A DNA stretch of 64,000 nt, taken from the sequence record OR844650. One strand, written 5' to 3'. Source of the DNA: Escherichia phage ECO103 4-12-1. The notes under the pieces are model-generated. The model searched no databases. It saw only the letters and a list, made by a program, of their open reading frames with translations, and was not told the DNA's origin. Numbering within the stretch: position 1 is the stretch's first letter; each line of letters opens with the position of its first letter. This document shows, in pieces, positions 38,827 through 47,031 of the stretch. The translations under genes were made by a program, and so were the position numbers.

Positions 38827-39249
38827 TTAAATTAATCTGTCACGTAGACGGTCGTAATATTTTTCGTGTATAGCTAGTATACACTGATATGCAGAATAGT
38901 CAATGCCAAATGTATCATCAATGAACATGTACTGATCAAGTGCTTCTGGCCCATTATCATCAACTGGTAATGTCCCTTCTTTTTTTGACAGGGTGTGCCA
39001 CATCAACTCACTTTCAATATGGTGAGTTGCGTATGTCAATTCAATCTTACTTTTTCTTAGTAAAATTAACAATTCATCATTGTCGTCGAGTGCATTACGA
39101 AATTTAATACGAACAGTACCCTGAAAATTATTAGTGTACATAACACGATGTTGATTATATGTAACTAAACCACGTCTTTCAGTACTGATTTCGTGTTCAG
39201 CAAAGTACTTTAACGTTTCATTAAATTTTGGAATTTTAGTAACGTCCAA
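38827..39249 (-). CDS. hypothetical protein (paralog pair member)
   Basis: Shares FIDDTFGIDY..YQ.I...+.Y block with the 39236 gene. Confidence 0.55.
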   Translation of the reverse strand: MDVTKIPKFNETLKYFAEHEISTERRGLVTYNQHRVMYTNNFQGTVRIKFRNALDDNDELLILLRKSKIELTYATHHIESELMWHTLSKKEGTLPVDDNGPEALDQYMFIDDTFGIDYSAYQCILAIHEKYYDRLRDRLI

Positions 39250-39652
39250 TCACATAATCCTCATAAAGTTTGTATACCCTCATTATACTCTGATATGTAT
39301 CAAAGTCAATGCCAAAGGTATCATCAATGAACTGATATTGCAAAAACTCTTCCTCTGTAGCAGCAATAGGAAGAGTCCCGTTTCGTTGTTCTGTTGATTG
39401 AACATCCTCAATATACATCAACACTATACTTTCATCCAGATTTATATCTATCATAAAAACATCTTCACTATAAAATATGTTATATGTACGGATGAAGAGA
39501 TTTCCTGTTCTATCATAACTTGACACGTGTGTTTCATAATACATTTTATCTAAACTAAAGAACAAACCTGTACTATCTGGCTTTTTAGTATTTTTTAATT
39601 TAATTTCGATAGCATCAATCATAGGTTTAATATCAAACTTTTTCATAGACAA
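39236..39652 (-). CDS. hypothetical protein (paralog pair member)
   Basis: Paralog of the 38827 gene. Confidence 0.55.
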   Translation of the reverse strand: MSMKKFDIKPMIDAIEIKLKNTKKPDSTGLFFSLDKMYYETHVSSYDRTGNLFIRTYNIFYSEDVFMIDINLDESIVLMYIEDVQSTEQRNGTLPIAATEEEFLQYQFIDDTFGIDFDTYQSIMRVYKLYEDYVIGRY

Positions 39653-39828
39653 ATCACATACTTATTACTATGTGGATCGTAACAATATGAATCATTTACC
39701 TTAATACCAGGCTTAAGTTCAATAGTTGTTCCTGTTTCTGTACTGGGTTCTGCATCACAATAAATCATCACACCAACCCCGACTAGTAAGGATATGATAC
39801 ATATAACTATACATATTGTATATTCCAT
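39643..39828 (-). CDS. small membrane protein
   Basis: 61 aa with one hydrophobic helix (ICIVICIISLLVGVGVMIY). Confidence 0.45.
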   Translation of the reverse strand: MEYTICIVICIISLLVGVGVMIYCDAEPSTETGTTIELKPGIKVNDSYCYDPHSNKYVICL

Positions 39829-39841
39829 AAATTTATCTCCA

Positions 39842-40237
39842 TTATAAAAAGTAATTATACAGTTTATTGTACAATATAAAAAGGTCTTTCACATTATCAT
39901 AAGTAATATCAGATACATCATGAATTAATGATAACTGAAAAAATGAAGCTTCGTCTATTTCTGCTGGAATTATAACATCACCATCTTCTTCGTCCATTTT
40001 ATTGGTGTAGTATTTTATGTGATCTACATTCAACTCAATAGAGAACGCAATGTTGGTTTTTGTATAATCTTCAATTAATCCAATATATTGAGATTTTTCA
40101 TTAATAAAAAATCCAATCCCAACACAACGGTTATCTGGATATGGATAGTACCATCTATTAATAACTAGGTGTTCAGGTAAGTCCATATCATGTGTTGATA
40201 TTAGAGATTTTACAATTTCCATCCAGGAATAATTCAT
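39842..40237 (-). CDS. hypothetical protein
   Basis: 131-aa ORF. Confidence 0.5.
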   Translation of the reverse strand: MNYSWMEIVKSLISTHDMDLPEHLVINRWYYPYPDNRCVGIGFFINEKSQYIGLIEDYTKTNIAFSIELNVDHIKYYTNKMDEEDGDVIIPAEIDEASFFQLSLIHDVSDITYDNVKDLFILYNKLYNYFL

Positions 40238-40290
40238 AATTAAAACTCCATAAGAAAAGGGACAGAATTAATCTGTCCCTTTAGTATATA

Positions 40291-40623
40291 TTACTCTTCG
40301 TTTTCTGTCAAATCATCAAGAACTGGGTGTTCTGGATGGTTTCGGCGGTGTAATTTAATGCTTTTGTCTTTACTGAATACAGTTTCCATCTTATCAAAAG
40401 ATTCAACAATTGCTTTATACAAATCAGCATCATCAGCAGTTACTGATTTACTACCAGCAGTTAAAGTTACAGCATATTGAGTTTTATGCTCTTTCTTAAC
40501 ATGAACACCAATGTCTAGTACTGAAGAAGTACGGTACTTATCCAGACTTTTTGCTTCATTGTAAATAGCATCTTGGATTGCTGGAGTGATATCAACGTTG
40601 CCTTGAATATTTAGATTTAGCAT
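40291..40623 (-). CDS. hpf: ribosome hibernation promoting factor / RaiA family protein
   Basis: Aligns along its length with E. coli HPF/YfiA (N.QG..DITPAI, DLYKAI...FDK.E); AGGAAGGTGA RBS. Confidence 0.8.
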   Translation of the reverse strand: MLNLNIQGNVDITPAIQDAIYNEAKSLDKYRTSSVLDIGVHVKKEHKTQYAVTLTAGSKSVTADDADLYKAIVESFDKMETVFSKDKSIKLHRRNHPEHPVLDDLTENEE

Positions 40624-40639
40624 ACTTCACCTTCCTTTT

Positions 40640-44786: not shown

Positions 44787-44794
44787 ATTACTCC

Positions 44795-45076
44795 TTATAC
44801 CGGAGATACGGTACTCAACATTAGTAAAGCTGTATTTTCATCAATTTCATGATAGTTGTCGCATACAAGTGTTTCCAACAAATCAGGATGATAATAATAA
44901 TGTTCATAATCAGTATCATTAGGAATATGATGATATACAAATACAATATCAAAAACATCATCATCATTTTCACACTTGAAACGCTTTAATTCATCGACAC
45001 TTTCAACAAAGCCATATTCTTCAAAAGCAGTTGTACCATCTGGTAGTTTCATCCATGCACTTGCAACAATTTTCAT
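44795..45076 (-). CDS. hypothetical protein
   Basis: 93-aa ORF. Confidence 0.5.
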   Translation of the reverse strand: MKIVASAWMKLPDGTTAFEEYGFVESVDELKRFKCENDDDVFDIVFVYHHIPNDTDYEHYYYHPDLLETLVCDNYHEIDENTALLMLSTVSPV

Positions 45077-45093
45077 AAATTTGTGAATCCTTA

Positions 45094-45678
45094 TTATTTT
45101 GTAATGTTTAGTTTAGAAACGAAGTATTCTTTGGCTTCTTCATATGTCATTGAAGTATACATAGGATTCCATTTATCGTCAATATCGATAAGTACTTTAA
45201 CTTCCATTACATCTTCTGGTGTATAGAATTGCCATGTATTGTGATCTGGCTCATAGTTAGGGTCCAGTACAAAAACCGTACCATCCTGACCATAAACTTC
45301 TCCATCCTCTAATAGCTCACGGAAGAAATCTTCTCCAGTAGTTGGGTCTTCGTATGCATTATAAAAACGAAAAACAACATTCTCAACATCTGTTCGGGTA
45401 GTACCATCGTCTTCATCATATTCCACCAAACGGTCCTGATGAAATACTAGGTCAATTGCACCAATGCGAGGTTTATTATGTGGAGTTTTGATTTCTTGCT
45501 GGGAATTGTAATCAATACGTTCAGTACTGATGAATACTCCACTAGGGGTAATTTCAATACCAGACACATTTTCTGGTGAATAGTAAGCGTCACACATGTC
45601 ATCAATGTGCATGTGCTCATGATACACTTCCATTTCAGGATTCTGCAACAACAGTGCTGCTAAGTCTTTTGCTTTCAA
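45094..45678 (-). CDS. hypothetical protein (paralog of 46414 gene)
   Basis: N-terminus MKAKDLAALLLQNPEMEVYH matches MKSHDLAKLLLSQPNLEIYH; TTG start after GGAGA. Confidence 0.5.
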   Translation of the reverse strand: MKAKDLAALLLQNPEMEVYHEHMHIDDMCDAYYSPENVSGIEITPSGVFISTERIDYNSQQEIKTPHNKPRIGAIDLVFHQDRLVEYDEDDGTTRTDVENVVFRFYNAYEDPTTGEDFFRELLEDGEVYGQDGTVFVLDPNYEPDHNTWQFYTPEDVMEVKVLIDIDDKWNPMYTSMTYEEAKEYFVSKLNITK

Positions 45679-46067
45679 TCTACAATCTCCATAGAATTAT
45701 CATCATCATAATCATCACTGGTGTACTTAGTTTTTACCTCAATACCATTCTCATGTAGGTATGTGATAAAACCATTACCATAAACGAATTGATTATAATA
45801 TGTATTTTCTTCTACATGTGCATCATAATCATCTTCATAATATGTGGGTATTGTAACATCATGACCTACACTTTGCAAGTACTGGAACAATTCTTTCAGT
45901 ACTACTTCGATATCACCTTCTTCTGTGCCATAACAATATGCAGGTTCACCGTGAGTGAATTTGAATCCTTTACAGGAAACTGTATAAATGTCACTCATGT
46001 TCATACCACAATCATCACATTCATGTATAGAACAATGCTGGTGGAATTTAATCTTTTTGATTTGCAT
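45675..46067 (-). CDS. hypothetical protein
   Basis: 130-aa ORF, Cys-rich N-terminus. Confidence 0.5.
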   Translation of the reverse strand: MQIKKIKFHQHCSIHECDDCGMNMSDIYTVSCKGFKFTHGEPAYCYGTEEGDIEVVLKELFQYLQSVGHDVTIPTYYEDDYDAHVEENTYYNQFVYGNGFITYLHENGIEVKTKYTSDDYDDDNSMEIVD

Positions 46068-46407
46068 TTAGAAAATCCTGTAAAGATGTAGTAGACATTG
46101 GACTATCAGCACCATCATACCACAGTGATGTATATGGCTGAACTGAACTAATATCAATACACAACCCTTCACGCTCACATTTTTGAGCGAATTCTTCAGT
46201 AGTTAGTTTGTTACCAAAAGAAATCTCAAATTCATAACTAGACATATCAATATCAGTACTGTAAATCAATGCACCATCATATGTAATATGGAGTTTAGAA
46301 TCTGCGTCAAAAAGACGATCTGAAATAGCTTCATAATCATCTTCAGGAACTGCTTCAATAAGACGTGCCATTAGTCCAGATGTTACGCGGTAATCACTCA
46401 TGTTCAA
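46048..46407 (-). CDS. hypothetical protein
   Basis: 119-aa ORF. Confidence 0.5.
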   Translation of the reverse strand: MNMSDYRVTSGLMARLIEAVPEDDYEAISDRLFDADSKLHITYDGALIYSTDIDMSSYEFEISFGNKLTTEEFAQKCEREGLCIDISSVQPYTSLWYDGADSPMSTTSLQDFLNANQKD

Positions 46408-46413
46408 CCTCTT

Positions 46414-47031
46414 TTATTTTTTAATTTTATCAATCATAGAAGGTGATACTTTTACATTGAATTCAGAATCAGGAAAATCTTTAGAAAATGAATCAATTTG
46501 TTCTTGTGAAAGTTCTTCTTTTTGTGGAAATAACATTTTAACTAAATTTTTACCACATTCAATTGCTTCATCATACGACATAGTTTCCCATGTTCCATGC
46601 CAAGTACTAGGTTCATATTCTGTCAGTACAGAAATGAAATCAATATCATCGGGTGTATACCAAACAGCATTTTGATTCCCTGATGGTGCTGATTGATTTT
46701 TACCTAATAAAACAATTGGCTTTTCATAAGGAATGTTAAATATCAACCCAGATTCTAAGTTAAGAACAGTTTGAATAGATGAACCCTCCAATTTTGGAGT
46801 AATAGTACCATCCTTAAAGAAAATTTGTACATGACCCAAGAGCGGGGTTTCGTATGGTGTAAGTACATTTTCAGAAACTGATGTGGGTTTTACCGTTGTG
46901 AAAATGCCAGATGGGGTGACCATTAATTTATTATCAAAATTCTGATAATGCAAGTCACTCTCTGCATCATAATGATAAATTTCTAGATTTGGTTGAGATA
47001 GTAGTAATTTTGCTAAATCATGAGATTTCAT
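46414..47031 (-). CDS. hypothetical protein (paralog of 45094 gene)
   Basis: Track start 47061 lies inside a terminator hairpin; ATG at 47031 has GGAGAAA RBS. Confidence 0.55.
   Translation of the reverse strand: MKSHDLAKLLLSQPNLEIYHYDAESDLHYQNFDNKLMVTPSGIFTTVKPTSVSENVLTPYETPLLGHVQIFFKDGTITPKLEGSSIQTVLNLESGLIFNIPYEKPIVLLGKNQSAPSGNQNAVWYTPDDIDFISVLTEYEPSTWHGTWETMSYDEAIECGKNLVKMLFPQKEELSQEQIDSFSKDFPDSEFNVKVSPSMIDKIKK

Follow-up and report, generated by a model that had tools for sequence, protein, structure and literature searches.

The window analyzed here is a 64,000-nt stretch of Escherichia phage ECO103 4-12-1 (sequence record OR844650), and our subject is the block of small genes that it carries at 38827-47031, for which an original prediction, made from the letters alone, had proposed an early host-takeover and anti-defense role. 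The interval is filled by exactly 20 co-directional minus-strand open reading frames (ORFs), named here g01-g20 (Table 1), which bears out the predicted number of about 20 small genes and agrees with the coding sequence (CDS) calls of the related phages SP27, G17, and phAPEC6. The encoded proteins are 43-308 aa long, with a median near 120 aa. The block is flanked upstream by the virion-protein gene g21 and at its other side by genes for a CCA-adding enzyme (cca), a Nudix hydrolase, and a glutaredoxin; it sits between structural genes on the same strand, namely a sheath-sized ORF at 30242-32905 and g21. Along its full length, the interval 38827-47061 matches Escherichia phage SP27 at 99.6% identity; identity to phAPEC6 is 99.1%, and to G17, Sharanji, slurp01, PBECO4, and 121Q it is 95-98%. 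All of these are Asteriusvirus jumbo coliphages of ~350 kb within the "Rak2-like" group. The block sequence has already been deposited many times, and its identifiable members come from described families; among the deposited Asteriusvirus genomes, more than 30 label it almost wholly "hypothetical protein". In our reading, the block is probably an accessory segment, conserved and non-virion, of an Asteriusvirus jumbo coliphage (PBECO4/121Q/SP27-type, "Rak2-like"), and not a dedicated early or anti-defense cassette.

What truly sets the block apart is small gene size, not acidity. When ORFs are called greedily (21 in the block), the median ORF measures 117 aa inside the block and 179 aa elsewhere in the window, whereas ORFs with an isoelectric point (pI) below 6 make up 67% of the block and 69% of the other window ORFs. 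The proteins are indeed mostly acidic, as predicted (14/20 with pI<6), but this equals the window background and we rejected acidity as a hallmark of the block. The overlapping stops and starts that had been described are likewise present at a part of the gene boundaries: overlaps, 4 to 20 nt long, are found at seven of the 19 internal junctions, while the other 12 are gaps, of 4-53 nt except for one of 168 nt. Because seven junctions overlap, translational coupling is suggested.

Scans of the 20 proteins against Pfam, PHROGs, NCBIfam, and PADLOC gave informative matches for g05, g06, and g07 only. No PADLOC or NCBIfam model matched any of the 20, and the PHROG families matched by the remaining proteins carry the label "unknown function". 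With known families matched by 3 of the 20 proteins, the ORFs are not all structural or housekeeping genes. Mass spectrometry of the phAPEC6 virion detected none of the block orthologs gp289c-305c (PMC7247149). Just outside the block, g21 (47080-47520) is a DUF5856 gene, labeled elsewhere as rI.-1-like or as "starvation-inducible DNA-binding protein"; its phAPEC6 ortholog, gp306c, was detected in the virion at a peptide coverage of 65.8%, and its identity across Rak2-like genera is 56-72%.

We further examined how the block is conserved. In a Nei-Gojobori comparison with fEgEco12, a more distant Asteriusvirus-like phage, dN/dS lies between 0.00 and 0.69 for 20 of 20 block genes, and because it stays below 1 throughout, including for the 43-aa g09 (100% conserved across Asteriusvirus; dN 0, dS 0.70), we take all 20 to be real coding genes. 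Among the three other genera examined (K64-1, CBB, 7t3), g06, g07, and g10 are present in all three, as are g21 and cca, and the identities of g06, g07, and g10 across Rak2-like genera are 46-60%. A second set, comprising g08, g11, g13-g15, and g17-g20, is present in some of the three, and tblastn at E<=1e-3 detects none of g01-g05, g09, and g16 outside Asteriusvirus. There is no match to g19 at the 121Q locus, and g19 would be dispensable because it is missing from that phage; several block genes are truncated or missing in the genome of the Salmonella-propagated phage SD-1_S14. The block nevertheless does not appear to be a hypervariable island, because g06, g07, and g10 are conserved, both paralog families described below predate the genus, and purifying selection is seen throughout. 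The remaining soluble block proteins seem to be lineage-restricted and, apart from g07, the block is typical jumbo-phage ORFan content.

Table 1. Genes and other features of the block at 38827-47031 and its edges
Feature	Coordinates	Strand	Description
g01	38827..39249	-	140 aa, pI 5.7; phrog_20693, g01/g02 paralog family; dN/dS 0.35
g02	39236..39646	-	136 aa, pI 4.5; tandem paralog of g01; phrog_20693
g03	39643..39828	-	61 aa; one predicted N-terminal transmembrane segment; hydropathy peak 2.95, residues 4-22; phrog_4189; dN/dS 0.25
g04	39842..40237	-	131 aa, pI 4.4; possible distant g01/g02 family member
Hairpin	40256..40282	.	11-bp stem; program call terminator-like on + strand only
g05	40291..40623	-	110 aa; short-form HPF/RaiA (Ribosomal_S30AE) homolog
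g06	40640..41566	-	308 aa, pI 9.6; predicted membrane anchor, LysM-like segment, T4-type lysozyme domain
Intergenic gap	41567..41734	-	168 nt, sole long gap of the block, upstream of g06; sigma-70-like -35/-10 matches
g07	41735..42145	-	136 aa, pI 9.0; predicted compact stand-alone 2H phosphoesterase, 2H-SAK type; H57-V-S59, H127-I-T129
g08	42153..42356	-	67 aa, pI 4.5; phrog_23174; K64-1 homolog 47% identical; dN/dS 0.16
g09	42361..42492	-	43 aa; predicted tail-anchored membrane peptide; transmembrane segment residues 25-43
g10	42504..42848	-	114 aa; phrog_4848, large strongly constrained phage family; dN/dS 0.02
g11	42878..43267	-	129 aa, pI 9.9; phrog_22631; K64-1 homolog 31% identical
g12	43264..43716	-	150 aa, pI 4.6; phrog_35643; most divergent block gene within genus
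Intrinsic terminator	43735..43753	-	8-bp stem then TTTTTT; same site annotated in G17; ends g20-g13 unit
g13	43762..43986	-	74 aa; ~46-aa hydrophobic stretch, probably two transmembrane segments; acidic C-terminus; phrog_22328
g14	43979..44317	-	112 aa, pI 9.4; phrog_20476; homologs K64-1 59%, 7t3 39%
g15	44307..44786	-	159 aa; phrog_27487; sub-threshold Pfam only: RusA E 0.024, NlpC/P60 E 0.059
g16	44795..45076	-	93 aa, pI 4.2; phrog_38016; dN/dS 0.05
g17	45094..45678	-	194 aa, pI 4.3; phrog_18200, g17/g20 paralog family
g18	45675..46067	-	130 aa, pI 4.4; Cys/His-rich N-terminus; phrog_9509; K64-1 homolog 43%; Pfam sub-threshold only
g19	46048..46401	-	117 aa, pI 4.1; phrog_10749; 7t3 homolog 35% identical
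g20	46414..47031	-	205 aa, pI 4.7; g17 paralog with ~40-aa C-terminal extension; phrog_18200
Intrinsic terminator	47052..47072	-	9-bp stem then TTTTCTTTT; between g21 and g20; upstream block edge

Expression of the block as an early unit is unsupported, and the indirect evidence points against it. Sigma-70-like promoter matches in the block are at shuffle level (69 vs 62.6 +/- 8.2), and neither the T4-like late motif TATAAATA nor the "TGAAACG" promoter class of phage CBB occurs in it. Of three terminator hairpins, the one at about 47.06 kb marks the upstream boundary, and those at about 43.74 and 40.27 kb lie inside and would split the block into at least three polycistronic units. The last of these hairpins reads AAAGGGACAGATTAATTCTGTCCC followed by TTTTCTT on the minus strand, and an ARNOLD minus-strand terminator is annotated at the equivalent position in G17; we read it here as the end of a g12-g05 transcription unit. 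In the long gap upstream of g06, the promoter-like pairs TTTACA-17-TAAAAT (41727-41699) and TTGTAA-16-TATACT (with TG; 41710-41683) are consensus matches only. At the upstream edge, g20 is assigned the ATG at 47031, preceded by GGAG; an alternative GTG at 47061 falls within the terminator hairpin. As for relatives, the early region of CBB has been predicted at CBB_390-546, away from the syntenic genes CBB_169-192 (PMC5259590), and RNA sequencing of PA5oct placed early genes in the terminal repeat.

The sole strong promoter-like motif of a phage-specific kind, GGGACA-N16-TATAAT with a TG-extended -10 element (TGATATAAT), lies outside the block. The window has three copies of it, each on the minus strand (48643-48670, 37543-37570, and 18534-18561), against 0.04 expected, and it may represent a phage-specific promoter class. 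The block itself contains none and is bracketed by two of them: one lies upstream of g22, the other in the cca-Nudix interval. Right after the g22-proximal site begins a 690-nt stretch (47982-48671), upstream of g22 and non-coding on the minus strand, in which SP27 and G17 carry a short annotated plus-strand CDS. Within the stretch, the 17-nt sequence CGTCCAAAATTTGAGAA is repeated exactly and in direct orientation (48184-48200 and 48336-48352; 0.01 expected). A comparison of the whole window with Rfam gave no match.

The main source of the block's interest is g07, which its fold and motifs mark as a putative compact, metal-independent 2H phosphoesterase with an HxS/HxT active site. It scores 25.8 bits against Pfam 2H-SAK (PF22547; cut-off 27), and a precomputed PF22547 match exists for many homologs, including one that is 96% identical. 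Motif conservation was assessed on 120 homologs listed of 390 found, giving a profile of 121 sequences in which H57 and H127 are invariant; the corresponding H-x-S/T motifs occur in 118/120 and 120/120 homologs, respectively. The AlphaFold model has a pLDDT of 92.5 and a pTM of 0.85, and its eight most probable Foldseek matches (ranks 1-8) are all 2H enzymes, with the anti-CBASS nuclease Acb1 on top (7T26; E 0.01, TM 0.48). A conserved N-terminal strand and an invariant Gly6 favor ATG 42145 over the GTG 42121 used in the SP27 record, whose start codon is corrected here. By tblastn the family is found in very large phages only, namely Rak2-like phages, Vibrio 2.275.O, Agrobacterium Atu_ph07, Bacillus G, and uncultured phages of 0.5-0.6 Mb, and its identity across Rak2-like genera (55-60%) is above that of the lysozyme g06. 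The protein would probably open or form 2',3'-cyclic phosphates, and its substrate could be broken tRNA or RNA ends or a cyclic or ADP-ribose-derived nucleotide. The structural scores of g07 do not separate immune-signal phosphodiesterases from RNA-end enzymes.

A second identifiable member, g05, is by homology a short-form HPF/RaiA protein. It matches Pfam Ribosomal_S30AE (PF02482) with 41 bits (cut-off 23.7; E 3.3e-10) over profile positions 2-84 of 88. Against PDB sequences it gives 15 matches at E<=0.1, the best being a ribosome hibernation promoting factor chain (4.9e-7), with E. coli-type 95-aa HPF chains at E about 5e-3, and its orthologs carry HPF/RaiA annotations in 121Q, PBECO4, and phAPEC6. 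From this homology, the expected binding site of g05 is the 30S decoding region, where it would keep ribosomes idle or protected; it could plausibly manipulate host translation.

One tentative possibility, to which we give somewhat more weight than to the other alternatives below, is that g05 and g07 cooperate with the products of the adjacent genes, the CCA-adding enzyme and the Nudix hydrolase, in maintaining tRNAs and translation. After a host attack on tRNAs or ribosomes, g07 would heal 2',3'-cyclic phosphate ends or clear ADP-ribose 1'',2''-cyclic phosphate, and g05 would shield ribosomes. The Nudix gene (37069-37470), cca (37579-38691), g05, and g07 lie close together on one strand, an RNA ligase gene lies between the g10 and g07 homologs of CBB and 7t3, and such a role has been proposed for jumbo-phage 2H enzymes in a comparative study (PMC7824862). 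In Pfam, the CCA enzyme shows a PolyA_pol head and RNA-binding domains and no HD phosphohydrolase domain; a separate cyclic phosphodiesterase might therefore be useful. Yet Asteriusvirus and RaK2/K64-1 have kept g07 and lack the CBB-type RNA ligase. Nor do the neighborhoods of three distant g07 homologs show a recurrent partner; they hold scattered Response_reg-type, TROVE, DUF4326, and YqeY proteins. The HPF of an rV5 phage showed no stable ribosome binding and was not recovered on ribosomes in the single published test (PMC6375957), and for a nearby ORF (35762-36238), which G17 and slurp01 annotate as a "Macro" (Poa1p-like) domain protein, Pfam gave no match at E<=0.001. If g07 does heal RNA ends, it would be an addition to the jumbo-phage toolkit for tRNA and translation maintenance.

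A functional analogy to Acb1, in which g07 would be a jumbo-phage-specific compact 2H nuclease destroying CBASS, type III CRISPR, or similar cyclic (oligo)nucleotide signals, strikes us as unlikely. The two proteins are close in size (136 aa vs about 140-152 aa) and in the spacing of their catalytic histidines (70 vs 69 residues), but the scores of the structural match are modest and no sequence relationship emerges: searches of PDB sequences with g07 alone, a 5-sequence profile, or the 121-sequence profile returned nothing, 7T26 and 7T27 included, and hhalign of the 121-sequence profile against T4 gp57B (Acb1) gave a probability of 0.7%. In Pfam, moreover, the family groups with PF22547, the 2H domain found in "Swiss Army Knife" proteins. 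Because the protein ends nine residues past its second motif, it lacks the C-terminal lid of Acb1, which closes over the cyclic dinucleotide (PMC9117128). Should g07 degrade immune signals after all, that strategy would extend to a second, sequence-unrelated family.

The third member of a known family, g06, combines an N-terminal membrane anchor, a LysM-like segment, and a T4-type lysozyme domain and is the predicted endolysin, of the signal-anchor (SAR) type. It matches Pfam Phage_lysozyme (PF00959) with 45.1 bits (cut-off 22.3; E 1.5e-11), shows a partial LysM match (1.1e-4), and is also matched by several PHROG lysozyme and endolysin families. Its N terminus is Lys-rich and leads into weakly hydrophobic residues 13-31 (TYGVLVCTVLVAAIGFYGF; Kyte-Doolittle peak 1.86), and its TTG start codon is preceded by a strong Shine-Dalgarno sequence, AAGGAGG. 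The homologous CBB_187/121Q gp532 has been predicted to be a signal-arrest-type endolysin with the same architecture, and induction of CBB_187 was reported to inhibit E. coli growth (PMC5259590). We set aside the paper on UE-S1 "LysUE1" as a source on g06; it concerns a different lysozyme, for which the primer encodes MSKWEIK.

The small membrane proteins g03, g09, and g13 may be endolysin partners or act in exclusion, and the block could accordingly contain a lysis cassette in which one or more of them serve g06 as holin, pinholin, or other lysis partner. We find this doubtful. The architecture of g06, the growth inhibition caused by its CBB homolog, and the presence of three small membrane proteins within 2.5 kb speak for it, as does the absence of g06 from the virion: its phAPEC6 ortholog gp293 went undetected by mass spectrometry while the tail lysozyme gp241 was detected, which is negative evidence only. 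However, Pfam and PHROGs gave no holin or spanin family match for g03, g09, or g13, unrelated genes and terminators separate the three from g06, and the C terminus of g13 (whose K64-1 homolog is 39% identical) is acidic, whereas holins are commonly basic there.

Two published labels for g10 are unsupported by our sequence tests, a result that for annotation stands beside the checked gene map (Table 1) and the corrected start codon of g07. The 114-aa protein (window 42504-42848; L004 5653-5997; L017 3879-4223) hardly varies within the genus. The fEgEco12 record gives it as "SAM hydrolase", the Sharanji paper lists its ortholog WNN14711.1 as a "type I restriction endonuclease", and all other records have it as "hypothetical". 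Its family is large: an exhaustive representative search found 592 representative clusters, where a word-indexed search gave only five close relatives, and it occurs in 195 phage records, including PVP-SE1-like phages, N4-like roseophages, and Rhizobium phages. No Pfam domain was found in any of 82 family members, none of the longer members among the clusters has one either, which leaves no informative fusions, and neither the single protein nor an 82-sequence profile matched a PDB sequence; these results leave the endonuclease label without support. Against the hydrolase label, the same PDB result is joined by an hhalign probability of 0.85% with T3 SAMase. The conserved residues of the family are C39, Y49, G52, E54, G56, Y64, R66, and Q91, and the hhalign alignment sets the near-invariant Gln91 on Gln94 of T3 SAMase. 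SAM lyases are, however, barely alignable to each other, T3 SAMase finding only itself in PDB. We regard g10, a strongly constrained member of a large phage family, as probably an enzyme. In the same fEgEco12 record the 2H enzyme is labeled "viral L protein" and the 43-aa g09 "nucleocapsid protein"; like the g10 labels, these look like automated mis-annotations.

Both predicted paralog pairs were recovered. The proteins g01 and g02 share 43% identity over their C-terminal 54 aa (E 6.5e-11), with the exact string FIDDTFGID in both, and g17 and g20 share 26% identity over 188 aa (E 9e-11), with the N termini MKAKDLAALLL and MKSHDLAKLLL; each pair falls into one PHROG (phrog_20693 and phrog_18200, respectively). 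The g01/g02 family adjoins cca in K64-1, as one ORF ending ...YHQYMFIEDHWNLSYDEY..., and in 7t3, as the tandem pair 7t3_0383/0384 (E 2e-11). The g17/g20 family comprises only 29 clusters among 5.8 billion proteins and has no Pfam domain; it has one copy in K64-1 and two in 7t3, which are the reciprocal best matches of g17 and g20. This duplication thus appears to be older than the split of the Rak2-like genera, both copies having been kept under purifying selection, and the g01/g02 family, whose copy number differs among lineages, would also predate that split. We therefore consider both families long-standing at their loci and not new acquisitions. The g01/g02 family may extend, at a distance, to g04 and to g278, an additional gene of fEgEco12: g04 and g02 both match phrog_17453 (1.2e-4 and 3e-5), and 7t3_0384 bridges the g04 ortholog (1.4e-5) and g02 (0.002), a link that for g04 is transitive and weak. 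A g01/g02 profile hidden Markov model did not support g04 as a member (E 3.8, not significant). Structure prediction with fold search, which the original prediction had put forward as a check and which yielded a confident 2H model for g07, did not place g17, whose AF2 model has a pLDDT of 65 and finds no Foldseek match better than E 0.7.

Several points weigh against our reading of the block as a conserved accessory segment. The proteins g02 and g12 have 50% and 43-44% amino-acid identity to fEgEco12, far below their neighbors, which fits host-interaction genes; dS is saturated for both (1.3 and 2.6). Because these two diverge amid neighboring block genes that are 90-100% identical to fEgEco12, mosaic exchange is indicated. 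Some 15-16 proteins have no assignable function, which leaves room for a coherent hidden role, for example as several inhibitors, and three viral immune-signal phosphodiesterases are among the nearest solved structures of g07. For g06, the role as endolysin is predicted, and the SD-1_S14 genome appears to hold only 57% of the gene, in an assembly that shows many deletions. Finally, a literature search found no Asteriusvirus transcriptome, and the timing of the block comes only from position, motifs, and relatives.

The proposal that had been made for the block, an early host-takeover and anti-defense cassette whose small acidic proteins, the duplicated ones included, inhibit host or defense proteins, is partly supported. 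Its components hold up to some extent: the block is non-virion, most of its proteins are small ORFans without a family match, 14 of the 20 have a pI below 6, within-genus divergence is fast for g02 and g12, and g05, as an HPF homolog, and g07, with Acb1 as its closest solved structure, are two candidates for an action on host translation or on nucleotide or RNA signals. As an early or anti-defense cassette as a whole it fares poorly, and we consider it quite improbable. The acidity is that of the window, promoter-like sites are not enriched, a predicted endolysin gene lies inside the block and structural genes around it, and the syntenic CBB genes fall outside the early region predicted for that phage. 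The g17/g20 duplication is by all appearances ancient, with both copies under purifying selection, and not a recent amplification, the g01/g02 family is likewise old at its locus, and no block protein matches a PADLOC or NCBIfam model. We also give little credence to a broader version, in which g07 would found a jumbo-phage-specific lidless branch of compact 2H nucleases that degrade nucleotide immune signals and have no sequence relation to Acb1, the lineage-restricted, acidic g01/g02 and/or g17/g20 families would be host or defense inhibitors, and the block would be a long-lived counter-defense locus of Rak2-like phages. A conserved accessory segment thus remains our preferred reading of the block, with g07 as the one lead worth an experiment.

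This accessory segment has clear counterparts in other phages. Within the PBECO4/SP27 group nucleotide identity is 95-99.6%, and syntenic Rak2-like segments span 121Q gp519-537, phAPEC6 gp289c-305c, CBB_170-191, and 7t3_0352-0384. These share with the window a common order: DUF5856 virion protein, small genes, g10 homolog, 2H gene, LysM-lysozyme, HPF, g01/g02-family genes, CCA enzyme, Nudix, and glutaredoxin. The segments of CBB and 7t3 also hold an RNA ligase, a DUF2828 structural gene, and a thymidine kinase, none of which is present in the window. The RNA ligase and the DUF2828 "structural protein" lie between the g10 and g07 homologs (L006 14009-17521, L007 14542-17580), syntenic to window ~42.1-42.5 kb, with the thymidine kinase nearby; in fEgEco12, a thymidine kinase lies between the g13 and g14 orthologs. 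Between cca and g01 the window carries a 40-aa, very acidic ORF (38693-38815; pI 4.1) that is conserved and, with a dN/dS of 0.07, under purifying selection; fEgEco12 has a second copy (g279), 68% identical, between its g03 and g04 orthologs.

Comparison with characterized proteins places the individual members. HPFs encoded by phages have already been described in rV5-like phages and in Cronobacter phage GAP32 (Mizuno et al., 2019; PMC6375957). Like these, g05 is single-domain, short (about 105-111 aa), and carried by a large myovirus genome, GAP32 being also Rak2-like; from the HPFs of CBB and 7t3, g05 is too diverged for tblastn detection at E<=1e-3. With the SAR endolysins P1 Lyz and phiKMV gp45, g06 shares a G/A/T/S-rich, weakly hydrophobic N terminus ahead of a T4-type lysozyme domain, and it differs from them in an extra LysM-like segment and in an insertion of ~30 residues between the putative catalytic Glu and Asp, as read from the sequence. 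The SAM lyases T3 SAMase and Svi3-3 are, like g10, small phage proteins (about 110-150 aa), but the spacing of the conserved g10 residues does not reproduce the lyase pattern G-x-Y...E...Q-E formed by substrate-binding residues (PMC7877911).

The closest comparison is that of g07 with Acb1, known from T4 gp57B and the enzyme of Erwinia phage FBB1 (PDB 7T26/7T27). Besides size and the distance between the histidines (H44/H113 in Acb1; PMC9117128), the two have in common a compact 2H fold, the HxS/T-HxT pattern, and a phage origin. They differ in that the Acb1 family was defined by BLASTp from T4 gp57B, to which g07 has no detectable sequence homology, and in that the lid formed by residues 145-152 of the FBB1 enzyme (PMC9117128) has no counterpart in g07. 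Finally, g07 belongs to another Pfam family, 2H-SAK, and is at home in jumbo and mega phages, not in T-even phages.

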